Source: a virus
Taxonomy: Duplodnaviria > Caudoviricetes
Reading direction: 5' to 3' (one strand)
Virus record (IMG/VR): IMGVR_UViG_3300041964_000194
Span: 1 to 53,373 of that record
DNA: 53,373 nt
Shown: piece after piece, positions 635 to 43,525 of the stretch
How positions within the stretch are numbered: position 1 is the first letter of the stretch
Layout: each line of letters begins with the position of its first letter
Notes under the pieces: generated by a model
What the model saw: only the letters and a program-made list of their open reading frames with translations
Told to the model about the DNA's origin: nothing
Database searches by the model: none
Translations under genes and position numbers: made by a program

Positions 635-641
635 GAACGAT
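631..641 (+). promoter_or_regulatory. Late-gene upstream motif GTAGGAACGAT (copy 1 of 10)
   Basis: Same 11-mer recurs upstream of structural genes; this copy ends 32 nt before ATG 674. Confidence 0.6.
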
Positions 642-644
642 TGC

Positions 645-672
645 AGCGAACAAAACTATACTTTTGTCCGCT
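645..672. other. dif/res-like recombination site (11-6-11 inverted repeat)
   Basis: AGCGAACAAAA-CTATAC-TTTTGTCCGCT; arms are 10/11 complementary with a 6-bp spacer, directly before the recombinase ATG. Confidence 0.6.
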
Positions 673-673
673 C

Positions 674-1504
674 ATGGATCAGCTTGCCAAGCTCGATGAT
701 GACGATCGCCTGATTGCGATGTGGCTGCATGGCCGTCCCGACTCAACCCAGAAAGAGTATGCGCGGGACGTGCAGAAGTTTCGATCGATCATCGGCAAAG
801 CTCTCAGGGCAACATCTCTAGAAGATTTGCAGCATTACCAGAATTATTTGCTGTTGCGCGACCTCAAGCCTGCCACGCTGAGGCGCAAGCTCAACACGAT
901 TAAATCGCTGTATTCGTTCGCCGCATCGCTGAATTACTTGCCCTTCAATATCGCTGCGGCGCTGCGTCTGCCCAAAGCAAAAGCAGTTTCTGCTCAGCGG
1001 TTTCTGCGGCCAGACGAGGTGAAGCGGTTAATTGCGGCAGCTCCACCAGGGAAGGCGCGATCGCTGCTGCTGTTTCTCTACGGCACCGGCGTCAGGATCA
1101 ACGAAGCCTGTACGCTGCGCTGGCGTAACTGCTGGCAGCGGCTCGACGGCAGCACCCAGGCCACGATTACAGGGAAGGGCGATAAGCAGCGTGTAATCCT
1201 GATCCCTCCGCAAGTTTGGGCAGAGGTTGCAGCTCTAGCACCCCACCCCCCACAGCCAGACGCACTTGTCTTCAACCTCGATCGCCGTCGCGCCTGGGAG
1301 CTGGTCAAAGCCGCTGCGATCGCCGCCAATCTGCCCAAGGTTTCGCCGCACTGGTTCCGCCACGCTCACGCCATCCACTCACTCAAGGGCGGTGCACCGA
1401 TTGAACTGGTACGAGACTCGCTTGGGCACAGCTCGATCGCGGTGACGAACTGCTATCTAGAAGCGGCTCCTGACGATGGCAGCAGCCGCTATTTGAATCT
1501 GTAG
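674..1504 (+). CDS. XerC/D-like tyrosine recombinase (resolvase type, no arm-binding domain)
   Basis: SAM-like N-domain plus catalytic motifs GVRINE, GKGDK, HWFRH, LGHSS and the C-terminal Tyr (TNCYL). Probable start is ATG 674. Confidence 0.9.
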   Translation: MDQLAKLDDDDRLIAMWLHGRPDSTQKEYARDVQKFRSIIGKALRATSLEDLQHYQNYLLLRDLKPATLRRKLNTIKSLYSFAASLNYLPFNIAAALRLPKAKAVSAQRFLRPDEVKRLIAAAPPGKARSLLLFLYGTGVRINEACTLRWRNCWQRLDGSTQATITGKGDKQRVILIPPQVWAEVAALAPHPPQPDALVFNLDRRRAWELVKAAAIAANLPKVSPHWFRHAHAIHSLKGGAPIELVRDSLGHSSIAVTNCYLEAAPDDGSSRYLNL

Positions 1505-2224: not shown

Positions 2225-2692
2225 GTGCCCAAGCAAATCGACTGGGAAGAAATTCGCAAGTATTGGCAGACCACCGGCGCATCTTCGCAGGCGATCGCGG
2301 ACCACTTCGGCGTTAGCAAACGAGCGGTTGACGATCGCCTGCCGCAGTGGAGATCGACTGAGAAAAGCCCGAAGGTTGTGACGCTCCAGGCCAGGTCGGA
2401 ATCGCGGCAGCCAACAACGCATCCGCCGATTCGCCGCCGCATTCCCAAAGGGCAAATAGACAAGCTCGAAATTCTTGAGGACGCGATCGCCCAGCTATCG
2501 GCGACGCTCAGCGGTGATGTTGACCCCAGGTCAATGGGCAGCATCGCAGGCGGCCTAATCAAGCTGATGGAATATCACGACAAAAAGCAGCCGCTGACAG
2601 CAGCAGAAGTTGTGGATCTGGCGATCGAGGTGGGAGTTACCCCGCAGCAGTTTGTCGATGAATTGAAGGCAGCATGGCAACAGCGAGCCTGA
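2225..2692 (+). CDS. Terminase small subunit (putative)
   Basis: N-terminal HTH (IDWEEIRKYW...SQAIADHFGVSKRAV); overlaps the terL start. Confidence 0.7.
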   Translation: MPKQIDWEEIRKYWQTTGASSQAIADHFGVSKRAVDDRLPQWRSTEKSPKVVTLQARSESRQPTTHPPIRRRIPKGQIDKLEILEDAIAQLSATLSGDVDPRSMGSIAGGLIKLMEYHDKKQPLTAAEVVDLAIEVGVTPQQFVDELKAAWQQRA

Positions 2693-4155
2693 AGCAGCAG
2701 TATCTCGCCGCGCTGGAAGCCGAGTTCTGTGAGCCGCAAGCAGAAGCTGAAACCAAGCCGCTCCTCACCTTCCGCGAATTTGTCGATCGCGTTTACCCGA
2801 AATATCAGTGGTATCGCCACAACGTTGTCCTGGGTAATGCTTTGCAGCGCGTGGCAGATGGCGAGCTAAAGCGGCTGATGGTGTTCATGCCGCCACGCGG
2901 CGGCAAGTCGCTGCTAACTTCCAAACTGTTTCCGGCCTACTACCTCTATCGCCACCCCGATCGCTTCGTTGGCTTGAATGCCTACAGTGCTGAGCTGGCT
3001 TACACCTTCAGCCGTGCTAGTCGCGAAGCCTTTCTACAGAATGGTGGCACGCTCAAGGGCGATGCAGCAGCAGTAAAGCATTGGGAGACTGAGCAGGGCG
3101 GTGGCTGCTGGGCGGCAGGTGTGGGCGGCTCAATCACCGGAAAGGGCTACTCGCTCGGACTGATTGATGATCCACTGAAGAACGCTGAGGAAGCCTTCAG
3201 CGACAAGATTCGCGCCAAGCAAAAGGAGTGGTATGAATCCACCTTCTACACTCGCGCTGAGCCAGACGGGGCGATCGTCGTGGTGCAGACCCGTTGGCAT
3301 CAAGACGACCTCAGCGGCTGGCTGCTGAGTGAGGAGGCCGGCAGCGACCAGCCGGAGGGTTGGCACATCGTCAACTTCGAGGCCATCAAGGAAGAGACGC
3401 TGCCCGACTTCCCCAAAACCTGCACGGTCGAACCGGACTGGCGATCGCCTGGTGAGGCACTGTGCCCGGAGCGCTTCACACTCAAGCGGCTGCTGCAAAT
3501 CATGCGCAAGGTCGGGACGCTGTTCTGGTCAGCCATGTACCAGCAGCGCCCATCTCCGGCTGAGGGTGACTACTTCAAGCGCAGTTGGTGGAAGTTCTAC
3601 CCGTTAGCTCCAGCGCAGTTCGATCGCGTTATTCTCAGCGCCGATTGCACCTTCAAAGAATCGAAAAAATCTGACTTTGTTGTCCTGCAAATTTGGGGAC
3701 AAAAAGGCGGTGAATTCTGGCTGCTAGACCAGGTGCGCGGGCGGATGGATATCAACGCCACCATCACTGCGATTCGCGCTTTGTGCGCCAAATGGCCGCA
3801 GGCGACAGCGAAATTAGTTGAAGACAAAGCCAACGGCTCAGCAGGTCATCGACCTGCTCAAACGCGAGATCTCAGGGCTGCTTCCCATCGAGCCAGAGGC
3901 GGCAAGCTGGTTCGTGCTGTGGCGATCGCCCCTTACGTTGAGGCGGGAAACGTCTATATTCCCGATCCGGCGATCGCGGCCTGGGTAAACGACTACATCG
4001 AAGAGTTCGCGGTCTTTCCGAATGGCGTGAATGACGACCAGGTAGACGCCACCTCGCAGGCGCTCAACTGGCTGAAACAGAATCCGCCGCCCTGTACCCG
4101 CCCGTCGCTACACTCCCACATCAAGCCGGAACTGGTAGGAACGCTGACGGCGTAA
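2674..4155 (+). CDS. terL: Terminase large subunit
   Basis: Walker A region MPPRGGKS, Walker B LIDDP, TRWHQDDL, and nuclease motifs SADC, VEDKANG, DDQVDA. A local compensating frameshift appears at ~3840-3900. Confidence 0.95.
   Translation: MATASLKQQYLAALEAEFCEPQAEAETKPLLTFREFVDRVYPKYQWYRHNVVLGNALQRVADGELKRLMVFMPPRGGKSLLTSKLFPAYYLYRHPDRFVGLNAYSAELAYTFSRASREAFLQNGGTLKGDAAAVKHWETEQGGGCWAAGVGGSITGKGYSLGLIDDPLKNAEEAFSDKIRAKQKEWYESTFYTRAEPDGAIVVVQTRWHQDDLSGWLLSEEAGSDQPEGWHIVNFEAIKEETLPDFPKTCTVEPDWRSPGEALCPERFTLKRLLQIMRKVGTLFWSAMYQQRPSPAEGDYFKRSWWKFYPLAPAQFDRVILSADCTFKESKKSDFVVLQIWGQKGGEFWLLDQVRGRMDINATITAIRALCAKWPQATAKLVEDKANGSAGHRPAQTRDLRAASHRARGGKLVRAVAIAPYVEAGNVYIPDPAIAAWVNDYIEEFAVFPNGVNDDQVDATSQALNWLKQNPPPCTRPSLHSHIKPELVGTLTA
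4135..4145 (+). promoter_or_regulatory. Late motif GTAGGAACGCT upstream of portal
   Basis: Exact motif ending 31 nt before GTG 4177. Confidence 0.6.
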
Positions 4156-4176: not shown

Positions 4177-5632
4177 GTGAAAACCGCTCAAACTCTTAGC
4201 CTGAAATCGATTCAAGAAAACCAGCGGTACTACGACGGGGAATTTTGGTCTTCTTGGATTGGTCCCAGAATTCCAGATAATGAACCCGGCGCGGCTGACC
4301 TGATGGCCGAGGTGAAACGGATCTTCCAGTCGGTAAACATGGTGCGCGAGTGTGTCGATCGCCATGTTGCAGCACTCATCGGCAGATTCCCCGTCTGGTA
4401 TTTGAAGGACAAAAGCGGAGAGCGGATTGAAGCAAGTGAGGCGGAGAAACTGCTTCAACGCTGGCTCGATGCCGTGCAGCAACGATCGGCATCGGGAGCA
4501 ACTGAGCAAGGGCGATCCATTTTTGAGTCTGTCACTAACCTGGCTATCAACGGAGAAGGGGCACTTCGGCTGTGGCAGCCCGCTCGATTTGAGAGCGCCT
4601 CAGACCCGATCGAGCGCATCCACCTGCACGCTGTCAAACCTGGCTCGCTGGAAGTTGAGCGCGGCGATGATGGGTTCATTGACGAACTGCGCTACCGCTA
4701 CGGCCAAAACAAAACTGAGGTTGAGCGGCTGGAAGACAACGGCGATCTAACGATCGAAAGCGATGACCTGGAAGAGCCGCTGACGCTTCCCACAGGCGGA
4801 CGCTGGACGATTTCGCAGATGCGCTCGCCCTCACTGCTGACGCCACAAATTAAGCAGAACCAGGATGCGGTCAACCACAGCTTGACCATGATGCTTCGCA
4901 ATCAGGAGCAGGCTGGGTTTCTCGATCGAATCTTCCTCAATGCCCAGCCTCCTGGCGAGTGGGTGGACGATGCCACGGCTCCAGGCGGCCAGCGCTTCGT
5001 GCCCAACGGCAAGGGTCTGGAGAAGGGCGCTGGTATCGACAACTTCCTGTTCGGAGTCCCCACCGGCGACCCAGCAGAACCCCACGTACACGACTCCGAG
5101 CGTGGTGACGAATCAGCCGATCGCGCCTGATGGGTTTCTCAAGTCGATCGCCGCCTACCGCGAATTCATCTATCACAGCTTCGGTCAAGGTCATCTACTT
5201 GCCAGCGCCGATGGCAACATCAACGGTGTCTCTAGAATCCAGCTACGTCAGGATTTCGAGATGAAACTGACGCGGCAGAAAACGACGATCGAAGCGGCGA
5301 TCGCCAACATCCTCAACGTGGTCCTGCGGATTCTGGGCTACGAGGAGCTTGAGGCAGTGGTGCAGCTCCGAATCACCACTGGCAAGCTGTCACCTGAAGA
5401 GCGGCAGATGATTATCACCGAGTTCGATAAGGGACTGCTGTCAAAGGCCACGGCGATCGCGCTTTTAGGAAGTGTCGAGGATGTCGATAGCGAACTCGCA
5501 CTCATCAGAGAGGAGGCCACAGAGGAGATGCGATCGCGCTCCAGCGACGACGACGACGATCCGCCAGTGCCAAACAACGAACCAACACCGCCAAACAACG
5601 AACCAACCGACGAGGAGCCAGATGAAGCCTAA
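4177..5632 (+). CDS. Portal protein (frameshift at ~5080)
   Basis: Follows terL; ORFs 4177-5130 and 4940-5632 join into ~485 aa with 'YYDG' near the N-terminus and an acidic C-tail. Confidence 0.75.
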
Positions 5633-5829: not shown

Positions 5830-5840
5830 GTGGGAACGCT
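5830..5840 (+). promoter_or_regulatory. Late motif variant GTGGGAACGCT upstream of scaffold/capsid operon
   Basis: Intergenic, ending 28 nt before ATG 5869. Confidence 0.55.
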
Positions 5841-5868
5841 GCCGAAGAACTGACGGCACAACTCCCAC

Positions 5869-6538
5869 ATGGAATTCAAAGAGGCTCTGGCAGCCCTTGA
5901 GAAACTAGAAGGCGGCGCGGCTCTGGCAGCCGTTTTCTCCTCCCACGTCAACAAGCTTGACGAGAAGATTTACACCACCATCGGCGAATCACGGACCAAG
6001 GGCGCGAAGGCATCAAGCCTTGAAGCCACCGTGCTGGCGATCGCCAAGTCGCTGGGCATTGAGGGCGATGTCGATACCGTACTGACTGGCCTGGAGCCGA
6101 AGGTAACGGCGATCGCCTCTGACCTCAAGGCTGCTCAAACCAAGCTGACCGAGACCGAAACCCGCGCCACGACCGCAGAAACGAAGGTGCAGGGTTTCGA
6201 GCGCAAAGGCAAGTTTGCAGACATTGCCAGCCAAAGCCGGTGCATCAGCAGCCGTGCTCGAAACGCTGTTTGGCGACAAGCTCGACCAGCTCGCGATCGA
6301 TGGCGAGACGGTCAAGTTTGGCGACAAGCTGCTGCGTGAGCATGTCGAAGCCGACGCCACGCTGAAAGATTTTCTCCCTTCGCTGTTTCCCTCCACCGAA
6401 CAGCCTCAGTCGAAACCCGCGCCGAAGCTGCCCAGCAGCCCGCCAAGCAGTGGGAACACCAGCAAAGACCCAGTTGGCGCTTATCTCAAGCGCACCTACA
6501 CCGGACGCAAGGCGTTCGAGAAACCGCAGGCGCAATAA
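5869..6538 (+). CDS. Capsid scaffolding protein (frameshift at ~6230)
   Basis: Coiled-coil with a Pro/Ser-rich C-terminus; located between portal and capsid; two ORFs join. Confidence 0.65.
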
Positions 6539-12431: not shown

Positions 12432-13396
12432 TAGCTATCACCAAGACTGTTAGGACACAGCATCCTTCAGAACCGACTCCATGACTTGCCGTAAAGAGCT
12501 AGAGCTAGACAAGCTTTTGCGAATGCGGCTTTTCAGCCAAGCCCAACACTTTTCAATCCGATTGAAATCTGGAGAATAAGCAGGTAGATACAACAAACGA
12601 CACCCCTTAAACTCAACCAGTTGAGCAATCCGTCCCCCATGATGAAACGTTGCGTTATCTAGAATCAAAACCTTTCCTGGCTTGAGTGTGGGCAGTAAAC
12701 AGGTTTCTAGCCAAGTTTCAAACACGACTCGATTACACGAACCATCGACGGTAAAAGCAGCACTCAATTGGTGCTCACAGTAAGCGGCGATCATATTGAT
12801 GCGTTCACTGCGCCGCCCTGACCTGAGTGCTTCAAAGCGCACTCCGCGTTCACACCAACCATAGGCATAATCGTCTCGTTCATCCATGCCTGATTCATCG
12901 AGATACACCCGGTCACAAACAGGCACCTGAGCAAGTTCTTCTAGAAATGCTGCTCGTTTGTCCTCATCCCGTTCTCGATAGCCATACGTCTTTTTTTTCG
13001 ACTCAAACCCAGCTTCTGTAACGCCCTGGCAATCGTACGGTCACTGATTGGGTCGTCCCACAACTGTGCCATCTGCTTTTGGGTTTTACCCCCATGCTGC
13101 TTAGCAAACTCGGCAAACTTGTCCCAATCGGTAATTTTGCTGGGCGTCTGATGCGGACGAGTGGTTTTGGCTTGATAATCTCCAGTGGTCTTCCGCCGCT
13201 TGAGCCACAAGTTGATGGTGTTGCGACTGATCCCAAACACTTGGGCAGCTTCGCTCTGCTTCATGCCGTCTAATTGGATGGCGTTGATCACCTTTTGTCG
13301 CAAGTCATAACTGTAGGCTTTTGCCATAAACACATTCAGGTTTTCTAGAGGGGGAGTTACCTCTAGTCTATGTCCTAACTGTCTTGGCGATAGCTA
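12432..13396 (-). mobile_element. IS630-family insertion sequence
   Basis: Terminal IRs TAGCTATCACCAAGACTGTTAGGACACAG and TAGCTATCGCCAAGACAGTTAGGACATAG (3 mismatches); TA duplication at 12430-31 and 13397-98. Confidence 0.93.
12450..13333 (-). CDS. IS630 transposase (HTH orfA plus DDE orfB, -1 frameshift at A8G)
   Basis: orfA begins AYSYDLRQKV; orfB has YLDESG, ILDNA and FNRIE. Slippery run at 12990-12998 gives the -1 frame KKTYGYRERDEDKR. Confidence 0.9.
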
Positions 13397-13720
13397 TATC
13401 ACCCAGGCTGAGGCTGAAGCGCTGCTGCGGAAAGATTTGCTGCGGTTTGAGGTCGGAGTTGAAGTGGCCGTCGAAGTGCCGCTGACCGACAACCAGTTTG
13501 CAGCGCTGGTCAGCTTCGCCTTCAACGTGGGACTGGGCGCGCTCAAATCTTCGACGCTGCTGGCGCGGCTCAACGCTCGAAACTACAGCGAGGCCGCTGC
13601 TCAGCTCGATCGCTGGAATAAGGCCAGCGGGCGCGTGCTGGCTGGCCTGGTGCGACGGCGTGCGGCTGAGAAGGCGCTGTTCCTGAAGCCATAGAGCCAA
13701 ACTATCAACAACTCCCCTAC

Positions 13721-13764: not shown

Positions 13765-16415
13765 ATGCCCAGCAAACCAGCAGCCGAATTAATCGCCAGA
13801 ACCGATCGCGCCCTCCAAGGATTAGAGGACTCCGCGATCGAAAGAATCAATGCCGCGCTCGACGCCAGCTATCTGCGGCTTGAGCGCGACTTAATCAAGG
13901 CTTACGAGCAGCACGCTGGCAACCTCTCGCTGCTGCCAAATCAGCGCAAGCTGCTGGTGCTGACCCAGGTCAAGGATTTACTGCGGCTGGTCGATCCCAA
14001 GTCGGCCAAGCAAATCCAGAAGGAATTTCAAAATTTACTGCGCGGCTCAACCGAGCAGGGGCGATCGCTCGCTGCTGCACTGACCGAGGCAATCGGCAAC
14101 GAGAAGGCAGAGACCTTCGCCGATGTGCCGATCGAGGCATTGCGGTTTCAAGCTGAGCAGGGCGTCAAGCGATTGGAGCGGCATGGCGAGGAGTTCGCCT
14201 CTAAAGCGAGCGCGATCGTTGAGCAGGGATTAGTCCAAGGCTGGGGCGCGCGCAAAGTCGCCACGATCATGCGTGGGGAGCTGGGAATCACGAAGGGAAG
14301 GGCAGAGCGAATCGCCCGAACCGAGTCGATTAATGCCCTAGACTCTGCCACCCGATCGAGCTATCAGCAGAACAATATCGCTTACGTGCAACGTATCGGC
14401 ACGGTCGATCGGAGGACGTGTCCTTTCTGCGCGGCAAGAGTGGGCAACGTTTATCCGGTCGATAAGGCTCCAGCGACTTTACACCCGAATGACAGCTGCT
14501 ATAACGCGCCGTGGAAGCGAGAGTGGGTCGAGGCTGGGCTGGTCGATACAGCCTGGATTGACAAGCACCGTGCTGACGTTTTGGCGCAGCTTGAGGCGCA
14601 AGGCAAACAGCCCAACCCAGGCGTTGCGCCGTTTGAGAAAGCAGCCGGAGCAACAGAACCGCTGAAGCCCTACTGGAAGCCTGGAGACAAGCTGCCGCGA
14701 GCGACCAAGCCCAAGCAGACCCAAGGCAGAACCGAAGCAACCCAAGGCCAAGGCCAAGACCAAGGCCAAGACCAGCACCAAGGCCACGAAGCCAGCGACG
14801 GAGTTCCCGCAGACCATAGACGGCTTGGAGGTGGTCGATCGCTGGGTGGCAGTACGGGCGCAACGCTAGTTCGTGACCCTGCATCCGGCCAGCAGTTCGT
14901 GCTGAAGCGTGGCAGCAGCCCAGACCACTTGCGCGAAGAGGCGATCGCAGATGAAGCGTATCGCGCCCTCGGCGTGCCAGTACCAAAGTCGAAGATCTAC
15001 GAAACCAGTGCGGGACCCGCGAAGCTGGCTGAGTTTATTGAAGGGCGATCGCTTGCCGAAGTGCTTTCAAGCCGCTCCAAAGAAAGCCAGCGAGTGCAGC
15101 AAGAATTGCAGAAACACTTTGCTGCTGATGCGCTCCTGGGTAACTGGGATGTTGTTGGCATGGAACTCGACAATGTGCTGGTCGCCAATGACGGCACGGT
15201 CTATCGCATCGACAACGGCGGATCGTTGCGATATCGAGCGCAAGGTGGGCTAAAGGGCGATCGCTGGAATGGATACCCAACAGAGCTGTGGTCGTTGCGC
15301 GATAAGAGCGTTAATGCCCAGACTGCACAATCCTTCGGCAACCTCACCTTTTCGGCTCTGGCTGGTCAGATTGAGGAACTGGCAACGAAGGAAGACGCAT
15401 TGCTTAAGGCGCTGCCCAAAGAACTGAAAACCACGATGCAGAAACGGCTGGCAGAGATGAAGCGAGTCGCCGACATCAACAACACGCTCGTGGCCGACCA
15501 GTGGAAGGAGAGCTACATCGACAAATTTACGCGCCACAGCATGGGACTGCGAGCGACTCCGGGAGTTGTCGATCGCCTGCCGCAAGAACTGAAGCAAAAA
15601 GGTGGCAAAGGGGTGCGGGTGTTCGACGAGAAGAAGCGCGAGTTCGACCACCTGCGTGGCGATAAATCGATCATGTATGACGTGCAGAAGTACATCGAGC
15701 GATCGGGTGGCAATTACAAACTGCTGCAACGCTGGATGAGCGCGCAGGCTGGATCGTCCTGGTCGATGATTCTCAGGCGCTCAAGTGGTTCTTAGCCGAA
15801 CAGCGCAACGCCAGCAATGAAAACTATTACTGGCGCGAGGGTGCTGACACCGCCAAAGGTCACCACAAACGAATCACAGGGCAGTTTGGAGCAGACAAAT
15901 TTACCGAGAGCTTTGCCGCATGGCACGCCTTCAACTATGAGCTGGTGAGTAACGTTCGCTTCGCCAAAAACAATGCAGAGACGCGCAGTATTCAACTGAT
16001 GCGAACTGAAGACCCGAATGTCATACAGAAGATTTATGGATTCAAACGCGGCGATCGCAACCTCCGAATGCAACGTGGTGCAGCAGAATCGACCTCAATT
16101 TATGAGCAAGTCAAAGTTTTTGGTTCAGAGGTGACTGTTCAAGAGGTTCCTTGGCATCGCGTCTTAGGCTGCTACTTCTATGAGCGGGTCTTGGGATCTG
16201 GCGGCACGGCATTCATGGGAGACGACGAAAACGAGTTCGTCTGCCTGCTCGATGACATTCCTTTCGACTACACCATGCCGAGCAGCCAGCCAGCCAGCAC
16301 CAGCACCAGCAAACCTGCCAGTACGACCAAGACCAAGACCAAGGCGAAGCCGAAGAGCAACCCGTCATTCCTGGAGGAGCTGGAAGCCCTGGCTAAGGAA
16401 ATCGATCCTGATTAA
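13765..16415 (+). CDS. MuF/gp7-type minor head protein fused to kinase-like and ADP-ribosyltransferase-like domains (~880 aa, indel at ~15765)
   Basis: MuF motifs RAERIARTE, DRRTCPFC, HPND.C; kinase-like LGGSTGA, FVLK, DALLGNWD...DN, RIDNGGSL; ART-like LMRTE, ESTS, ENEF. The reading frame continues across one indel (DDSQALKWFLAEQRN...). Confidence 0.75.
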
Positions 16416-16422
16416 CTAGAAC

Positions 16423-16701
16423 CTAGACCGGACCAGGCTCAAAGCGACCGTCCTGGACTGCCTGCCCAAACTCGTCATACAGCCGCAGGATCTCAGGATC
16501 GTTCGTGAATCCGCGCAAAGTCAGGCTGCCAAACACGATCGCAGGAAGTACTGACTCAAATTCAGCGCCCAAGAAAATGATCCCTGCCTCGTATAGGGTG
16601 GGCTTTTGCTCTAGAAAAATTCGAGCAAGGCGACCATTAATTTCTACTTCCAGGACGGAATAGCCCTGATCTTGAACATAGCGTGGGTTGCGAATTTCCA
16701 T
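16423..16701 (-). CDS. Hypothetical protein convergent with MuF gene (candidate immunity)
   Basis: MEIRNPRYVQDQGYSVLEVEINGRLARIFLE...; its stop lies 7 nt from the MuF stop. Confidence 0.6.
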   Translation of the reverse strand: MEIRNPRYVQDQGYSVLEVEINGRLARIFLEQKPTLYEAGIIFLGAEFESVLPAIVFGSLTLRGFTNDPEILRLYDEFGQAVQDGRFEPGPV

Positions 16702-16750
16702 AAGGTGATTGTAGTCGCAACCCACAGTCGCTGCGTGGTGTTAAATCGGC

Positions 16751-23700: not shown

Positions 23701-24962
23701 ACCAACTGCTGAGTGAGAAGATGCCGCCGATCGCCTGCTGGAGCTGAACGGGCAGCTTGGCACGCTGAACCAGCAGCGGATTGAGGCGGAGATTGCCGCT
23801 CAAGAACGGCTGCGGCAGGTGCAGATCGAAGCCCTGAATCAGGAGCTAGCAGCGGCGCAGAATCTAGCCGAAGTGCAGCAGGGATTGAACCAGATCCAGT
23901 TCAATTCACTCAGCAGTCAAAACAACCTGCTATCCGCTCAGAGCGGCTTGGTTCAAGCTCAGTCTGCTCTAGTGCAGCAGCGCCTGGGCTATGCGCTGGA
24001 AGAAGCCGAAGCCGCAGGAAATACCGCTCAGGCGGAAAGCCTCAGACGGCGAATTATCAACGAGCAAATCGCCACCCAGGAAGAGCAATTCGCGATCGCC
24101 CAAGACCAGCTTGACCTGAAGCGAGAGCAGGTGGAGCTGGAGGCGATCCAGCGGCAAATTCAAGCCGAAATCGCAATCACAGAGGCGGAGGTGGCAATCG
24201 CCACGGCGCAAATCAACGGCGAGAATCAGCAGGTCATCGCTGGCCTGGAAAGGATTCTGGGACTGCGCCGACAGCAACAGCAGGCGATCGACGACCAGGC
24301 ACGGTCCCAGCAGCGCGTGTTGGATTTAGAGCAGGAGACGCTGAACGTTGAGCAGCAGCGCGATCGCGAGCGACTGACACGGCAGCGGACGCTGGAAGCC
24401 CGCGACAACAATGCAGCCGGAGAAACGGGCAGCAGTGACACTGGCGACACTGATAGCAGCAGCACTGGCGGCGCTGGTAGCAGCGGCAGATCTACGATGC
24501 AGCCGGCAGGCGAACCGAACTGGCGGCGCTGGTAGCAGCAGCACTGGCGGCGCTGGCCTTACCGCTTATGGAAACCTCGCCGTTGGGCAGCTCGATCGCG
24601 CCTCAGAACTGCGGTCGGGCGGCGTATCCGACACGCTGGGACGGCTGCAAAACAGCGGCAACAATCCCTACTCCGAGGCAATTCTGGCGGCATCAGGGCG
24701 AACCGATGTCCTGAAGCTGCAAGACCTGGCGCGCAGTGGCTTCCAAGGCAATCTGCAAGCCGGACGGATTGCAGCGGCTCGCGATCGCGGCGAAATCGGC
24801 GGCGGCCAGGTTGAGCAACTAGTCGATCGCCTGTCGCAGGAAATTGGCAAGCTCGCCTTCAGCGGCAACACGTTCAACATTTCGGCAGCCGATGCAGTGG
24901 AAGGCGTTCAGCAGGTATCGGCTGACTTTATGCGGGCAAGAGTATCTGGAGCCGGACTATGA
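20722..24962 (+). CDS. Tape measure protein (~1400 aa, several indels)
   Basis: TP901-like core (AAKVVDVLAQTQDAGK, AESAISGTRQ), a hydrophobic TM block and long Q/E/A coiled coils; contiguous ORFs change frame. Confidence 0.85.
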
Positions 24963-25415
24963 GCAAGGGAATCACACTGGTCGGCGGCGGCATCACGCTG
25001 CCTTAAAACTTTTTTCGGGTTCGACCTTTCCGCGAGAGCAAATCACGCCAGCGATCGGCGTAGGCTTTTCTGCCTACGGCACGCCCAACACGGACGGCAC
25101 TAGCTACGAACCGAAGCACATTTGGAACTTCGTGGCGATCGTTTCGCCTGCCGACGCTGAGCTGCTGGACGTGCTGGAGACAATCGGCAGAACGGAGAAT
25201 ATCTTGATCTACGACTACACTCGGCGAGTGTGGGATACAGCAGCGCGATCGCGGGCGCTTGCACCAGGCGCGAGTGAGGTGACCAAGGCAGCCAAACCGG
25301 ATATTACGCGCAGTTTTATGGCCGAGTCACCCAACCGATCAAACCTGAAGAAGACGGCGCTTACCTCCTTTGTGCGGTGCAACTGACCGAGACCGATCGA
25401 GTGCTACCAGCGTAG
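24959..25415 (+). CDS. Distal tail protein-like (frameshifted)
   Basis: ATGA overlap with the tape measure stop; ~150 aa; call is by synteny. Confidence 0.5.
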
Positions 25416-25445: not shown

Positions 25446-28258
25446 ATGGTCGTCGATCGCCGCTCTCGCCGCTTCAAAATCATCATTGTTCAGCCTGGAG
25501 AAACCGAGTCCACTGGGCTGGATGTGAGTGCGATCGTTGCCTCTTTTGAAGGCGGCAACAATGCGATCGGCCAGTCTGGGATTTGCTCTTTTACAGGCGA
25601 CCTGACGCTCAACGCCTATTCGCTGGGAAGTGGCATCAATACCAATCCCCGCAGCGATCGCAAGCGCTGGGCGCGAGGCAATCGCGTCATCATCTATCTG
25701 GCCGACAGCAGCGGCACTCTGCTTAAATACAAAACCTTACACATTCTCAAAGCACCGTTAGCGCCAACGCCACAGACGCGCCCAACGCTGCAAATCTCAA
25801 CCGGAGACAAGCTCAGCCTGCTGTCGTTCCGGCAGCCACCCGGAGACGAGAGCGGAGTCGAACCGGGAACCAGCAAGACTCGTTTGCAAGTGGTGAACGC
25901 CCTGCTCGCAGCAGCCGGAGCGGGCATGGTGTTCGGGTCGATTCCCGGCAACGTGCCCTGGCCGTTGCAGAAGCTCTGCAACGAATCATTCATCCAGGAA
26001 GCAGGGCAGATTGCCTTCGCAGCAGGGCGATATCTGTGGGTCGATCGAGCTGGAACGGTTCGCGCCAGCGCCCTGCCGCTCGACAACTCTGGCTCAGCGA
26101 TCGCACGCTCATCATTGGGCAGGATGAGCTGATTTATGAGCCGATCGAAGTCGCGGAAACGCCTGCCGAGGTCGTTCGCTGCATCGGCAGCGAGTATCTG
26201 ACCAGCTTTACCTCTGACTACACCAGGAGCGAAAACGAGTCCTGGGGACCAGCGGCGATCGTCAGTCCCAACGCAGGCGGAAAGACAATTCTGCTGCAAG
26301 AGACGATCGAGGAAACCTGGTCCGGCTCGGTGCGGAGCGTGCGGACTCATCGAGTCGAGCCGCGCGGCATCTTGTTCCTGAAGTGCAGAGCAACCGCACG
26401 ACGCTGGTTCCCAGCCTCAGCCAGGAAGAAAATTTTATTTACGAACCCAGCATCGAAGGCAAGCTGCTGAGAATTGAACGGTCAGCTCGCAGGCCATACG
26501 GCGTCGTGCTGCGCGAATACATGGCAACCCAGTCGCCGCTGGAGCAGGCGTTCAACCGCAGCAATATCATTCCGGCTGAGCGGACGACGACAACCTACAG
26601 CTACGAGAAAGGGCAGACCAGCGATATCTCCACGACCACAGCCGAGCCGCAGGGAGCGATTCTGCCGACTGAGGACTGGACGTATGGAAACCCAACATTT
26701 TTAGTTACTGCCAGCGCAGAGAAGCAGTCCTGGGAGGAGCTGTATCCGAGCGAGTGGCAATACAAAAAGCTGACTTATGCCGCCGCAGCGCGAGAGTATC
26801 CCGAAGTCATTGAGGCGATGCCACCCGAGTCGCCGACTCAGCCAAGCTGGGCGTCCTGCTGGTTGGCAAGCAAACAGTCACCTCCAACTCCGGCCAAGCC
26901 CAGCCACCCGCGCCCGATCGCCGCAAGCCGAAGGTCACGGTAAAGGAAAGCCCGATCGAAGGCGAGGCGAAGTTTAAGAGCTACGCAGGCTCGGAGTTTC
27001 AGGAGCGCGAGCGGGTTTACGACGTGCCCTATGCCACCCAACAGGAACTGGACTTGGCCGCTCAACGGCTGGGCAAGCTGCTGATCGGGCGCAACCAGGG
27101 GCAGCAGATTGGCTTCGCCCTGGACGACTACTGGCTTAGCGATCCGCCGCCGTTACAGACGATCGCAGTGACGGAGCCGGATGGCTCGAAGCAGAAATAT
27201 CTGCTCGACACCTCACGATCTCACTGGATGCGCGGACTGCCACTTGGGAGCAAACGGCATCTGGCTCGGCAGCTTGAAAACCAGCGTCATGAGTTCCACT
27301 GGTGAGACGGTCGAAGTGCTGGATCTGCCTTACCGTCAAGAGTTCAGCATGACCAGTCGATCGGATGGACGCGCAGAAATTCTCCTGTCGCCTTATTCGC
27401 TCGTTCCTCAGACGCACGAACTGCTCAGCCGCTCAGATGGGCGCGCAGAATTCTCGACGCTGGAGATGACTGGCGGAGATGACGGCAGAGGAACCTTCAC
27501 GATCATCCCAACACTGGCTAGCAATCGTGACGGCAGATCAACCTTCACAGCCGTGGTCAAATCCACGCTGACCAATAATGTCGCGGCGGCTTGGAACTTC
27601 AACGGCAACTTTACCGATGCCGTCGGCAGCAACAACCTGTCGATCGTCAAAACCTTCTCGGAGCTGGGAATGTTTCTTTTGTCAGCGGGAAGGTTGAGCA
27701 GGCCGCCTGCTGGACCGCATTGCCTATCTGAGCTGCCCTAGCCACTCAGCGCTGGGGCTGAGCAGTGCCAACAATTTCACGATCGCCTGCATTGCTTCAT
27801 ACACAGAAGCCAACCCTAATCTCAATCTTGCAGGTAAGTGGAGCGACGATTTCACCTCGATCTATTACGACAGCTTCCCCGAATATGCGCTGCGCCTCTA
27901 TACCAATTCCGGTGGCACAGGTTTCAGGTTCAGGCCGGATTCAATGCGGCTGCTGTCAGCGGCGGCATCGTAGCAGGCGTTTATCTGGTCGTCGGCTGGC
28001 AAGACGCCTTCAACCTCGCAGCTCGGCGTCTGGGTGCGCAGCTTCGACACCGGAACCGTCTGGTCTGCCACGACCACATATAGCGGCACTCGCAACTCAG
28101 AAGCCATCAGCAACTTCAGGGTTGGAGAGCAAAACACTACTGGCTCGCCTCCTGATATCTGGATTGACGGACTGGCGATCTGGCGGCGAGCGCTGACTAA
28201 CGGCGAGCGCAACGACTTGTACAACAACGGTTTGGGGCGCGAATACCCCTATCTATAG
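25446..28258 (+). CDS. Tail tip/hub protein with C-terminal LamG/ConA-like domain (many indels; may be more than one gene)
   Basis: Chain of overlapping ORFs; the C-terminus AAWNFNGNFTDAVGSNN...IDGLAIWRRALTNGERNDLYN is LamG-like. Confidence 0.6.
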
Positions 28259-37126: not shown

Positions 37127-38053
37127 ATGAACAGAATTGAGTTTTTGCGTTTTCGCCGATCTTACGAGTGGGTATTGCGTCAAGTTCTACTAGATCTTGA
37201 ATTTTTTATTGAAGATTTAGTTGGAATTAATGTTTATGCAGTAACACATCGACTAAAGACTTTTGAAAGTGCTCTTGAAAAATCAAAGCGGCTTAATCTG
37301 AAAATTGATGAAATGCAAGACATCGCTGGCATTAGAATTGTTGTAGCAACTTCAGATGAAGTTGCGATTCTTGCTCGCTTCTTCTCTAGAAAGGCTGATT
37401 TAAAAGATCTCATTATCAAGTCAGACGAAATAATTGATAGAAAAAATGGTTATCGAGCAAGGCATTTAGTCTTAGAGTTCTCAGGGCACTATTCGCGCTC
37501 AATGCATTCAGCCTTTGTAGAAGTTCAAATTCTCACTCTTTTGCAAAGCACTTTCAATTATATTTCAAGAGCTTGGGTATACAAAGCTGATTGCGCATTA
37601 ACGGATACATGGCGCTCCAATTTCCAAAGATTATCCAGTGATTTGGCGGAAATCGATCAAAGAATTGCTCAGCTACAGAAGCAAGTTGTTGAATCCTCTG
37701 TATCTTCAGCGCCAAACGATCCTCTCACTCCTTTTTCTTACCAACAAATCGTTACTGAAACCTTCGGAGAAACCATCAAAATAAACGATGCAGTAGATAG
37801 CGTACAAATGTTAATTGATCTGGGTTGTGATACAAATGGAAAATTACAAGATTTCTTCGGAAGAAATGACATTTTAAACATGCGTGAACAGATTATAGCC
37901 ACGAAGTCAGAAGCTGGACAAGCTTTTGCAGAACTTGTAACTAGCCTGTCAATCCATAGTTTTTATATGATGTTTGGTCTTCGAGTTGACTCGACCAAAG
38001 AATTGATTCAATGGCTTAATCAAGCTAAGCCAAAAAATGAAAGCTCACAATAG
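37127..38053 (+). CDS. RelA/SpoT synthetase-domain nucleotidyltransferase (SAS-like) with C-terminal extension
   Basis: HRLKTFESALEK, QDIAGIRIV, NGYRARHL, VEVQILT, WVYK. Confidence 0.85.
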   Translation: MNRIEFLRFRRSYEWVLRQVLLDLEFFIEDLVGINVYAVTHRLKTFESALEKSKRLNLKIDEMQDIAGIRIVVATSDEVAILARFFSRKADLKDLIIKSDEIIDRKNGYRARHLVLEFSGHYSRSMHSAFVEVQILTLLQSTFNYISRAWVYKADCALTDTWRSNFQRLSSDLAEIDQRIAQLQKQVVESSVSSAPNDPLTPFSYQQIVTETFGETIKINDAVDSVQMLIDLGCDTNGKLQDFFGRNDILNMREQIIATKSEAGQAFAELVTSLSIHSFYMMFGLRVDSTKELIQWLNQAKPKNESSQ

Positions 38054-41117: not shown

Positions 41118-42233
41118 ATGGACGTTTCAGATCTTGTCGAGGCCGCAAACCAGAGGCTTAGGCTGGCACGGATTGCCGCGTCGATCGAGCTGCGCGGCAA
41201 AGAGCAGCGACTCTACCTGCGAGCCACACTGCCGCCAAAACCGGGACACCCGCGATCGTATCCCTACCAGCAACGCATTTGTCTGAACCTACTAGGAACA
41301 CCCAGAGCAGTGAAATTTGCAGAGGCGCAAGCAAAACTGCTGGGAGCGGAGCTGGAAACAAAAAGCTTTGATTGGAGCCGCTGGGACTATTCACCCCATC
41401 GCCCCACAGCAGAGACGATCGCGGACTGGGTGCAGCGATTTGAGGAGGATTTTTGGAGCCGGAGAGAGCGAGATTCTGGGCGAGAGGCAACCTGGAAGAA
41501 TTATCTGAAGGTATTTCGGCATCTACCACTCGATCGCCCGCTCACCAGTGAAGTGCTGCGAAAGCGAATTAAAGACACAGACGAAGACTCGCACCATCGA
41601 CTACAAACCACACTGGTGCTTTGGCGACTGGCGAAATTTGCTCAGATCAAGGGCTGGGAAGATTTGATCAAGTTGAAGGGCAGATACTCTCCCAAGCGAG
41701 TAAATCCTCGATCGCTGCCAACTGACGAGACGATTGCCAAGGTGCAGCAGTCGGTCAGCGACCCTGGCTGGGCATGGATTATCGGTATGCTTGCGGCTTA
41801 TGGTCTGCGCAATCACGAAGTTTTTAAGCTGGACTTGAGCCAGTTTCCCAACATCCGGGTGGAACCAACCAACAAGACTCGCTCTTCTAGGCTGATTTAT
41901 CCGCTGTATCCCGAATGGGCTGAGCGCTGGAAACTAGGCGATCGAGTTCTACCAAACGTACAAATTCGACCTGGGATGGGCAACTCTGCGCTGGGTGCCA
42001 AAATTACGGCGGCGTTCTGGTATCAAGATTTGCCTTTCACGGCCTACGACTTGCGCCACTGCTTTGCCCGCCGCTGCTTCGAGTTCGGCATTCCGATCGA
42101 GACCGCAGCTCGACTGCTGGGGCACTCGGTCGATCGCCATCGGGAGACCTATCAGGCGTGGATTGGCGAATCATCGCACCGGTTTGCCTATGAGCGGCAA
42201 ATTAACAGGAGCGATCGACCTCTGCCGCCCTAA
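41118..42233 (+). CDS. Tyrosine integrase with N-terminal arm-binding domain
   Basis: RLYLRATLPPKPG N-domain; YGLRNHE, YDLRH, LGHS...H...Y. Confidence 0.93.
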   Translation: MDVSDLVEAANQRLRLARIAASIELRGKEQRLYLRATLPPKPGHPRSYPYQQRICLNLLGTPRAVKFAEAQAKLLGAELETKSFDWSRWDYSPHRPTAETIADWVQRFEEDFWSRRERDSGREATWKNYLKVFRHLPLDRPLTSEVLRKRIKDTDEDSHHRLQTTLVLWRLAKFAQIKGWEDLIKLKGRYSPKRVNPRSLPTDETIAKVQQSVSDPGWAWIIGMLAAYGLRNHEVFKLDLSQFPNIRVEPTNKTRSSRLIYPLYPEWAERWKLGDRVLPNVQIRPGMGNSALGAKITAAFWYQDLPFTAYDLRHCFARRCFEFGIPIETAARLLGHSVDRHRETYQAWIGESSHRFAYERQINRSDRPLPP

Positions 42234-43139: not shown

Positions 43140-43525
43140 CAGCTCACCTCCGAGGCGATCGCGCCACTGAACGCCCGCGCAAACGATTCGGTTGCCTGTT
43201 GCAGGTCGGGATCGACCCACCATTTGGGGTTGCAGCGAACCTCGACCTTGCGGCCGTCGGTGGTGAGTGTCAGCGTTGCACCATCCCGAATGACAGAGAT
43301 GAGCGTGCCGCCAAAGCTAACGATCGCCACCGAGTTGAGGTGGGTCAGGTGATTGGCTGGCTCGCATTCTTCGAGCAGGTACTCGGTCGCCTGCTGGCCG
43401 CGTGGAGCATCGAGCAAGTAGAGGCGGAGCGATCGCCGGATGCGGTGTTCGCAGAAAAACAAAACGTTCTGCGGTTTGTGTCGAATCAAGGCTTTAGGGC
43501 GAACCCAGTCGGGGAATTTGCTCAC
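43139..43525 (-). CDS. Hypothetical protein
   Basis: 128 aa, with stop/start overlaps on both sides. Confidence 0.6.
   Translation of the reverse strand: MSKFPDWVRPKALIRHKPQNVLFFCEHRIRRSLRLYLLDAPRGQQATEYLLEECEPANHLTHLNSVAIVSFGGTLISVIRDGATLTLTTDGRKVEVRCNPKWWVDPDLQQATESFARAFSGAIASEVS

Follow-up and report, generated by a model that had tools for sequence, protein, structure and literature searches.

The provirus record IMGVR_UViG_3300041964_000194 (Duplodnaviria; Caudoviricetes), which was analyzed over its full length of 53,373 nucleotides and is referred to here as the window, harbors at positions 13765 to 16415 of the plus strand a coding region that is most likely one gene of approximately 883 codons, broken by single-base undercalls in the deposited assembly. 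Its product is predicted to comprise an N-terminal MuF (SPP1 gp7-like) minor head domain, a linker, a protein kinase-like domain, a mostly helical middle domain, a divergent ADP-ribosyltransferase (ART)-fold domain, and a low-complexity tail (Table 1), and the gene is met at its 3′ end by a small convergent gene which encodes a candidate immunity protein. In the open reading frame (ORF) track, the region appears as an ORF of 676 amino acids (aa) in frame 1 (13765 to 15795) and an open frame of 244 aa in frame 3 (15681 to 16415). A previous reading made from the sequence alone (the sequence-only reading) had proposed that this track splits one gene, namely, a MuF protein bearing two tandem enzymatic domains, kinase-like and ART-like, on either side of one indel. 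The motifs quoted in that proposal (LGGSTGA, FVLKRG, REEAIADE, DALLGNWD...DNVLV, RIDNGG, LMRTE, AESTS, and DDENEF) were all present in the translations, and they represent invariant columns of the family rather than chance occurrences. The neighboring small gene was absent from it. The host is presumably a cyanobacterium, as the best homologs are cyanobacterial (approximately 50 to 64% identity) and the metagenomes in which the sequence occurs derive from biocrust and soil.

The reading of the region as a single gene is based on homologs and on public sequence data. The 837-aa homolog P0001 aligns with frame 1 as far as ...QAGSSWS (P0001 residue 654) and with frame 3 from residue 656 onward, and tblastn of five homologs against the window gave the same junction at approximately 15765, so that the frame change postulated there is real within the window. 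Logan contigs from four public runs of four studies (X1, X2, X3, and X7; biocrust and soil metagenomes) were aligned to positions 14800 to 16500, and all contigs bridging 15763/15764, in each of the four runs, were found to carry one extra base which restores the frame and removes the stop at 15795. The extra base is either a C behind 15763 (depth of 10.5 in X1 and 3.3 in X7) or a G behind 15764 (6.2 in X1, 8.78/8.78 in X2, 4.48/4.48 in X3, and 2.8 in X7), these being two synonymous strain variants which both read ...SSWSDDSQALKW...; it accounts for the whole depth in X2 and X3, while the sole other X1 record at this position (record 4) stops at 15764 and does not bridge it. Together with the contiguous homologs, these contigs restore the fusion across 15764, and the split is thus attributable to an indel, as had been suggested.

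The proposal of one indel did not hold, as the public contigs reveal a second at 14835, behind which an extra C is present at full depth in X1 (7.18/7.18), X2 (9.65/9.65), and X3 (6.13/6.13), X7 having no coverage here. With this C, frame 2 (...KAKAKTKAKTSTKATKPATEFPQTIDGLEVV) continues into RSLGGSTGA (...VVRSLGGSTGA), in agreement with the family consensus FPxxxxxLExVRxLGGSTGA; the Lys-rich linker, which the sequence-only reading had rightly located behind the MuF domain, is therefore readable in frame 2 only and not in frame 1, whose text at this point (...QGQGQDQGQDQHQGHEASDGVPADHRRLGGGR) falls outside the reading frame. L002 and L003 are the two closest loci from cyanobacteria, and their homologs read the end of the linker as ...EFPLKRGLKKLEVVRSLGGSTGA and ...FPDNSDELTVVRQLGGSTGA, respectively, in a single frame. 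Frame 1 must also give way to frame 2, and this third change would lie within approximately 14690 to 14799; tblastn of homologs bridges the short out-of-frame linker by gaps, and the upstream indel is not locatable in this manner. No near-identical record with the exact 40-base pattern was encountered in the viral-contig and metagenome-contig collections scanned.

Because at both located indel sites a run of two bases has been read as a single base, and because the portal gene and a head gene at 5830 to 6517 are likewise split between frames, the breaks are very probably assembly or read undercalls; the flanking contig sequence is otherwise 99 to 100% identical to the window. The portal gene is divided into 4207 to 5094 and 5060 to 5488, the portals of L002 and L003 being single ORFs (496 and 481 aa), and the head gene occupies two frames, its L002 and L003 counterparts also being single ORFs (243 and 238 aa). 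Further overlapping same-strand ORF pairs are numerous, e.g., at 23819 to 25386 and 25446 to 26943, which suggests one-base errors throughout the provirus record and renders its ORF-based annotation unreliable. It is quite unlikely that the gene is truly broken, i.e., a pseudogene in a decaying prophage which yields no full-length effector, even though three frame changes (the third being deduced), the split portal and head genes, and an IS630-family insertion sequence (IS) element beside a partial lysozyme fragment would be in keeping with such decay: the shorter version of the window occurs at neither 15764 nor 14835 in any contig of the four public runs, both sites conform to the usual pattern of undercalls in two-base runs, and all catalytic residues are intact. 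Joining of the pieces in vivo by programmed ribosomal frameshifting, for which the three open and overlapping pieces might be cited, is exceedingly improbable and was rejected, given that the homologs are single ORFs, that public contigs from near-identical strains are in frame, and that no slippery run is present at 15760 to 15766.

Table 1. Features of the MuF-kinase-ART gene, its neighbor, and the surrounding provirus record
Feature	Position (strand)	Frame	Basis or remark
MuF/SPP1-gp7 minor head (head morphogenesis) domain	13765..14690 (+)	1	Pfam, PHROG, TIGR01641
Lys/Pro/Ala-rich linker ending in family motif EFPQTIDGLEVV	14666..14835 (+)	2 only	Three-frame translation
Indel site 2	14835..14836 (+)		Window lacks one C present in public contigs
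Protein kinase-like domain (CtkA/actin-fragmin kinase-like)	14836..15498 (+)	1	
Kinase motif sites	Gly loop 14845-14862; Lys 14905; Glu 14938; D..L.GNWD 15127-15150; DN 15169-15174; IDNG 15208-15219		
Middle, mostly helical domain	15499..15764 (+)	1	Model secondary structure; between kinase and ART in 120/120 listed homologs
Indel site 3 (the indel of the sequence-only reading)	15763..15765 (+)		Window one base short, giving false stop at 15793-15795
Divergent ART-fold domain, R-S-E type	15765..16280 (+)	3	
ART motif sites	R 16002-16004 (LMRTE); S-T-S 16089-16097; E-N-E 16227-16235		
Ser/Thr/Lys-rich low-complexity tail, short terminal acidic helix, stop	16281..16415 (+)		pLDDT mostly 48-58; helix at 202-212
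Convergent small gene	16423..16725 (-)		100 aa from GTG 16725; probably 92 aa from ATG 16701
Provirus record (classed as provirus)	53,373 bases		
Integrase	641-1504		
Large terminase	2674-4155		
Portal	4177-5632		
IS630-family transposase	12450-13333 (-)		DDE_3, E 6.6e-38; HTH_Tnp_IS630, E 9.8e-13; two pieces in different frames
Phage-lysozyme fragment	13437-13694 (+)		Covers profile positions 50-125 of 125 only
RelA_SpoT-type small alarmone synthetase-like ORF	37127-38053 (+)		RelA_SpoT, E 5.4e-14
Weak second integrase-like ORF	41118-42233 (+)		
VapE-like fragment	43522-44244 (-)		

The MuF domain recognized in the sequence-only reading was borne out by matches to PF04233 (E = 1.3e-9, aa 152 to 245, 39.2 bits against a cutoff of 29.6) and TIGR01641 (E = 3.9e-13, 49.7 bits against a cutoff of 39.65) and by 18 matching PHROG head families, the best of which is PHROG 115, 'minor head protein' (E = 3.9e-18); this part aligns to residues 5 to 302 of P0001. 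The approximately 550 residues that remain after it match no entry in Pfam, PHROGs, or NCBIfam. In homologs, the N-terminal partner of the kinase-containing part may differ, being a Mu portal in P0012 (E = 5.7e-112) or MuF plus NUDIX in P0056 and P0082, where NUDIX lies between MuF and the kinase, and an inorganic-pyrophosphatase domain is fused to the module in P0028. In P0020 (1172 aa), the MuF part contains a weak match to intein splicing, which at 33.1 bits does not reach the cutoff of 35.8.

The kinase fold which had been read from the motifs was corroborated by structure prediction. An AlphaFold2 model of the kinase and middle domains (aa 345 to 667, 323 aa, 50-row alignment) reached a predicted local distance difference test (pLDDT) value of 92.8 and a predicted template modeling (pTM) score of 0.89, and its Foldseek search returned at least 500 PDB chains at E ≤ 0.001, the best 50 all being kinases. 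Upon VIA re-alignment, Helicobacter pylori CtkA (3akk) ranked first (Z = 15.1, root mean square deviation of 3.3 Å over 210 residues), with a Z approximately 2.7 above that of the next family, followed by RioK1 (12.4), actin-fragmin kinase (AFK; 1cja, 11.8), and PRPK/Bud32 and HipT-type kinases (approximately 11); 580 of 1000 chains attained Z ≥ 8, in keeping with a bilobal kinase fold. Across 50 aligned sequences, G17, G18, T20, G21, A22, K37, H44, E48, D52, D111, N116, W117, D118, D125, N126, R137, D139, N140, and G141 are invariant, and by their order and spacing these columns would represent a Gly loop, an ATP-binding Lys, the Glu of helix C, a catalytic loop, and a DFG-like Mg site. The modeled fold is thus shared with the atypical Ser/Thr kinases CtkA (3akk/3akl) and Physarum AFK (202 residues aligned), both with a Foldseek TM score of approximately 0.45. 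The window domain nonetheless differs from them in having no detectable sequence relation (13 to 17% identity in the structural alignments) and in its fusion to a head protein and an ART. The domain accordingly appears, from the model, to resemble a CtkA/AFK-type kinase, yet it is placed outside those curated sequence families.

The C-terminal 216 aa were modeled with a pLDDT of 85, the first 170 residues lying mostly above 90. Residues R80, E82, S109, S111, and E155-N156-E157 are invariant in this part across the 50-sequence alignment, and the model places R in strand 75 to 82 and STS in strand 108 to 111, while ENE (155 to 157) enters strand 157 to 160; R, STS, and ExE occupy strands 1, 2, and 5 of the model. 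A Foldseek-independent VIA search of 48,161 representative chains was headed by SpvB (Z = 5.2, 133 aligned residues) and C2-I (5.1), then an ART-ARH toxin and Tre1 (both 4.8), followed by CPILE-a, Vis, HopU1, VIP2 (4.3), C3 enzymes, Certhrax, diphtheria toxin, and PARPs; nearly all of the best 50 are ART folds, yet the top Z is only 5.2. The ESM Atlas search with the C-terminal part gave no usable match, and in the viral-contig search with the 244-aa frame, none of 169 pattern matches was confirmed. The homogeneous match list, the invariant residues, and their placement on strands, taken together with the observations on the phage Dolphis protein and the neighboring gene detailed below, support the prediction of a divergent R-S-E ART fold, the Z values being modest. 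This domain resembles the R-S-E ARTs of the C3, VIP2, iota, and SpvB type in that R, S-T-S, and E-x-E follow in the same order on equivalent strands and in that such enzymes are the top structural matches, but it departs from C3, VIP2, SpvB, and Tre1 in its Z values of 4 to 5, 8 to 14% identity, lack of PF03496, shorter R-to-STS spacing (29 residues), and unrecognized partner family. The tail (16281 to 16412) ends in an acidic helix, FLEELEALAKEIDPD, a similar acidic end being present in L003. One X1 contig joins 16299 to 16406, skipping 106 bases (16300 to 16405), which indicates that tail length varies between strains.

The two domains proved not to be independent of each other. A search with residues 340 to 676 identified at least 408 proteins at E ≤ 0.001 among 8000 scored candidates, and all of the 120 listed homologs carry kinase, middle, and C-terminal part in this order on one unsplit chain (local BLAST). 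Forty of these 120 also match the MuF part of the window by BLAST, in six the kinase starts no later than residue 60, and several more than those described above bear a precomputed PF00293 (NUDIX) match. In a full phmmer scan of 1.84 billion representatives, for which the 216-aa C-terminal part alone served as the query, 466 proteins (clusters at 50% identity) were retrieved at E ≤ 0.001, 320 of them at E ≤ 1e-10. The best 150 of the 466 include 108 new proteins, among which 76 contain all three parts; of the other 32, 29 are short (≤349 aa), with a match that begins in the first 37 residues, and are probably gene fragments, and three have 165 to 207 unmatched N-terminal residues. Among the listed 120 and the best 150, no protein clearly has the C-terminal domain while lacking the middle domain and kinase. 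The description of two tandem enzymatic domains, therefore, is retained with respect to the two predicted folds but not with respect to their independence, since kinase, middle domain, and ART appear from these comparisons to be one obligately linked module of approximately 500 aa in the homologs examined.

The kinase, in turn, does occur without this ART. Among 80 loci from species-representative genomes, 25 encode the kinase with the C-terminal domain (Cyanobacteria, Chloroflexota, Phycisphaerales, Holophagales, Verrucomicrobiota, and Kiritimatiellota/Lentisphaerae), and approximately 55 encode the kinase alone, in ORFs of 1000 to approximately 2900 aa (Verrucomicrobiota, Chlamydiales, Planctomycetes, Legionella longbeachae, Saccharibacteria and other Patescibacteria, and Omnitrophota). 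These giant ORFs, which include L043 (L. longbeachae), L047, L049, L070, and some 50 others, may contain the kinases which Iyer et al. 2017 (PMC5512222) described in ‘polyvalent proteins’. As the kinase stands without the ART in approximately 55 of the 80 loci, it is considered to have a function of its own. This bears on the alternative that the kinase-fold domain is merely a regulatory or targeting part of the ART, acting as a nucleotide- or host factor-sensing switch or as an autophosphorylating activator, with a single effector activity in the protein. Many ART toxins require a host cofactor, which would suit such an arrangement, as would the finding that an ART without recognizable kinase and middle domains was seen only in fragments, whereas the kinase is found with other C termini; an accessory role of the ART-proximal parts would account for both. 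This alternative is nevertheless very unlikely: besides the solitary kinases of giant proteins, all 50 aligned sequences retain the Gly loop, Lys, Glu, catalytic-loop Asp/Asn, and the Mg-binding Asp of IDNG without change, residues which pseudokinases usually lose.

Homologs of the neighboring small gene immediately follow the module gene as the next ORF in L002 and L003 (cyanobacterial metagenome-assembled genomes), where they are convergent as in the window, and in L005 (Phycisphaerales) and L006 to L008 (Chloroflexota), where they are codirectional, the copy of L008 overlapping the stop codon. Those of L002, L005, L007, and L006 were detected by blastp (E = 2.6e-18 to 8.5e-10) and those of L003 and L008 by tblastn. 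The close homologs P0229 to P0231 are 91 to 92 aa in length, these three and 41 more distant relatives are all annotated ‘hypothetical’, and no Pfam or NCBIfam model covers the family. In L002 (1057 to 5106) and L003 (2770 to 7623), the MuF-kinase-ART gene directly follows the portal gene, whereas in the window it is situated approximately 8 kb downstream of the portal-adjacent position, behind the lysozyme/IS region; the persistence of the small gene beside the module gene despite this difference in location argues for a two-gene cassette.

A complex was predicted for the homologous pair of L002, using residues 335 to 843 of P0016 and its neighbor with an alignment for each. The ipSAE was 0.79 (0.80, 0.79, and 0.75 in the three individual runs), the best of three controls being 0.00; among reference cases, 58 of 80 solved complexes but also 2 of 110 mismatched pairs attained this mark, counts which apply only as a rough guide, given that custom alignments were supplied for the present prediction. 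The runs agreed in at least 90% of contacts, and the partner had a pLDDT of at least 88. The confidently predicted contacts on P0016 all fall in the ART (residues 652 to 658, 679 to 683, 740 to 743, 745 to 747, 760, 766, 773 to 778, and 811 to 813), the invariant residues of which are W680, R737, E739, S766, S768, and E813-N-E815. The interface is thus predicted to adjoin R737/E739 and to include S766 of STS and E813 of ExE, and since these contacts coincide with invariant motif residues, the partner would sit on the catalytic face of the ART. An inhibitor on the active face is also a property of the Tre1-Tri1 pair (6drh), the likeness being one of prediction only in the window family. The model supports the assignment of the neighbor as a candidate immunity protein or ART inhibitor, and it likewise adds to the case for an active ART domain.

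Relatives of the kinase part were also detected in cultured phages, where tblastn against 50,697 phage records yielded 20 records, four genes of which are annotated as ‘ADP-ribosyltransferase’ or ‘ADP-ribosyltransferase toxin’ (H1, H6, H17, and H18). Pseudomonas phage Dolphis gp117 (1222 aa) contains the kinase at residues 636 to 821 (hhalign E = 1.1e-25, probability 99.7), followed by a Pfam ADPrib_exo_Tox domain (PF03496; residues 1119 to 1196, E = 1e-7), and Aeromonas phage ST4 ST4_109 (1177 aa) contains it at 609 to 777 (E = 3e-27); Yersinia phage fHe-Yen8-01 is among the others with a homologous kinase. Unlike the window protein, those of Dolphis and ST4 begin with approximately 600 unrelated residues and have no MuF match, and the ART of Dolphis is an ordinary ADPrib_exo_Tox. 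In the records of these phages, the kinase part is unannotated; where only ‘minor capsid protein’ or ‘ADP-ribosyltransferase’ is assigned, the kinase is invisible. In both approximately 90-kb phages, the kinase-ART gene (ST4, L082:1132-5942; Dolphis, L083:790-5802) is followed by an overlapping or abutting ORF of approximately 165 aa and then by a NUDIX gene. The approximately 165-aa ORF could encode an inhibitor of the large kinase-ART protein. The occurrence of the kinase-then-ART order and of the NUDIX link in Dolphis and ST4 indicates that both are general. With the ART part of the window family as the query, tblastn against the same phage records gave no match.

Taken together, we propose that the gene probably specifies a MuF-anchored, capsid-packaged effector of the polymorphic toxin type, which combines a protein kinase with an arginine-type mono-ART and is neutralized in the lysogen or producer cell by a small inhibitor. 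The MuF/SPP1-gp7 domain would place the protein in the capsid, at the portal, from where a few copies packaged with the DNA would be ejected into the next host cell. There, the kinase would phosphorylate and the ART would ADP-ribosylate host proteins, arginine being the expected acceptor in view of the ExE motif, and the cell would be redirected or arrested, or a defense disarmed. The inhibitor encoded by the neighboring gene would cap the catalytic face of the ART and so protect the lysogen or producer cell. Both the fusions to MuF and portal parts and the literature on MuF proteins and T4 Alt (PMC5576092, PMC5512222, and PMC9503650) form the basis for presuming packaging and ejection, and we infer, rather than observe, the enzyme activities, their targets, the delivery route, and the role of the inhibitor.

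A number of findings weigh against this proposal. The window protein matches no Pfam (E ≤ 1) or NCBIfam kinase model (Pkinase, Act-Frag_cataly, etc.), and the family profile retrieved only low-complexity noise (Mediator 15) and two matches at E > 0.7 from all PDB sequences. The ART matches, at Z ≤ 5.2, fall below the level at which a match stands out in VIA, and Foldseek returned none at E ≤ 0.001 for the ART model (best 0.088, in a weak list almost wholly composed of ARTs); for the 244-aa frame, there was no Pfam match at E ≤ 1, PF03496 (ADPrib_exo_Tox) included, and no match to an NCBIfam ART model. The ART fold of the sequence-only reading thus draws its support from the invariant R/STS/ExE residues and the almost exclusive presence of ARTs among the best matches, but not from the strength of any structural match. 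Nor did the family profile align significantly with the ART region of Dolphis (hhalign E = 0.14, probability 0.4), although the sole alignment obtained pairs STS with STS and ENE with EDE; its comparison with the C-terminal region of ST4_109 was also not significant. The predicted complex is that of a homologous pair, the L002 partner being 40% and the module approximately 45 to 55% identical to that of the window. The partner family was detected by tblastn in 6 of the 25 fetched loci with an ART part, and Verrucomicrobial loci have other small conserved ORFs at this position. Finally, as the change from frame 1 to frame 2 lies upstream of 14800 and hence outside the contig-covered interval, MuF and the module could here be separate or frameshift-coupled products.

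As the main alternative, the same domains may be read in terms of small-molecule NAD+/ADP-ribose chemistry, in which the ART would be an NAD+ glycohydrolase or a maker of ADP-ribose derivatives, the kinase would phosphorylate the nucleotide, and NUDIX would cleave it, with the purpose of depleting NAD+ or else of destroying or imitating immune signals derived from NAD, either instead of or alongside protein modification. The full R/S-T-S/E-x-E set is typical of protein (arginine) transferases, the nearest structures of the kinase are protein Ser/Thr kinases (CtkA, RioK1, AFK, and HipT), and the Pfam scan of the window protein detected no NUDIX, all of which makes this chemistry unlikely as an explanation for the gene. 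It does, however, agree with the fusion of NUDIX between MuF and kinase in P0056 and P0082 and its presence in several more listed homologs, with the separate NUDIX gene that lies two ORFs behind the kinase-ART gene in ST4 and Dolphis, with the pyrophosphatase fusion of P0028, and with the inclusion of small-molecule kinases in the kinase fold, APH(3′) and WaaP appearing at Z of approximately 10 in the VIA list. Literature precedents also exist: a review of phage NAD-ADP-ribose metabolism (PMC9503650) describes Nudix enzymes packaged in heads and, separately, R-S-E/H-Y-E ARTs that act as NADases, and HopAG1 is reported to pair ART and NUDIX (PMC9963460).

A somewhat unlikely variant is that kinase, middle domain, and ART constitute a single two-center enzyme coupled on one substrate, phosphorylation either priming or locking ADP-ribosylation or leading to an ADP-ribose-phosphate product with the frequently linked NUDIX. 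Such a coupled enzyme would define a novel class of phage effectors that are injected from the capsid and have an immunity family to themselves. Its occurrence extends over at least seven bacterial phyla, and relatives amenable to experiments exist in cultured phages of Pseudomonas, Aeromonas, Yersinia, and E. coli. The presence of the kinase in ART proteins of the cultured phages Dolphis and ST4 makes the pairing testable at the bench.

The capsid-packaged effector which we favor has counterparts in known systems. Jamet et al. 2017 (PMC5576092) describe MuF polymorphic toxins of temperate phages, with an ART in 14% of 191 toxins; one example, the MuF-ART ‘EFV toxin’, belongs to a prophage of Enterococcus faecalis V583. 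These toxins are reported to have a MuF N terminus, a variable C-terminal toxin, a temperate context, proposed delivery with the DNA, and an adjacent immunity gene (PMC5576092). The window likewise combines MuF with a C-terminal toxin-type domain, an integrase, a terminase, and a portal in a record classed as a provirus, and it has a conserved neighbor of approximately 100 aa as a candidate for the latter. It differs in that its ART is divergent, has no Pfam match, and is always located behind a kinase and middle domain, while its immunity candidate belongs to a new family and is convergent; the term ‘kinase’ is absent from the main text of Jamet et al. (PMC5576092). The concept of capsid-packaged, injected protein-modifying enzymes is shared with T4 Alt, a head-packaged ART, and with the polyvalent-protein kinases (PMC5512222). 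For the latter, a kinase family is described (PMC5512222) from polyvalent proteins that phages and prophages encode in Verrucomicrobia-Chlamydia and Bacteroidetes, the same phyla in which the window-type kinase occurs alone in giant ORFs. By description, those kinases have lost the C-terminal lobe and show a His...Asp motif, in contrast to the 210 residues aligned with CtkA and the D.....N.D motif of the window kinase.

Toxins of the MuF-ART type with their immunity genes are already known, as are ARTs packaged in heads and kinases injected by phages. The literature searched yielded no description of a kinase-ART module, although subscription journals or supplementary files may hold one, and none of an actin-fragmin kinase in a phage context. 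Judged against Pfam, NCBIfam, and this literature, the obligate kinase-middle-ART module, the divergent ART, and the inhibitor family are apparently new, a prior description being possible. They belong to a large unnamed family, with 466 clusters matching the ART part and at least 408 proteins matching the kinase part, in which an atypical kinase is locked to a divergent ART; neither Pfam nor NCBIfam has a model that covers the module, and the candidate cognate inhibitor family is likewise unnamed.

With respect to the surrounding record, the IS630-family element lies immediately upstream of the partial lysozyme gene, which directly precedes the MuF gene, and the lysozyme gene may have been cut by this element. 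The 3′ part of the window has a lower G+C content (0.41 to 0.52 over much of 30 to 42 kb and 46 to 52 kb); with its alarmone synthetase-like, second integrase-like, and VapE-like sequences (Table 1), it resembles a patchwork of other mobile elements.

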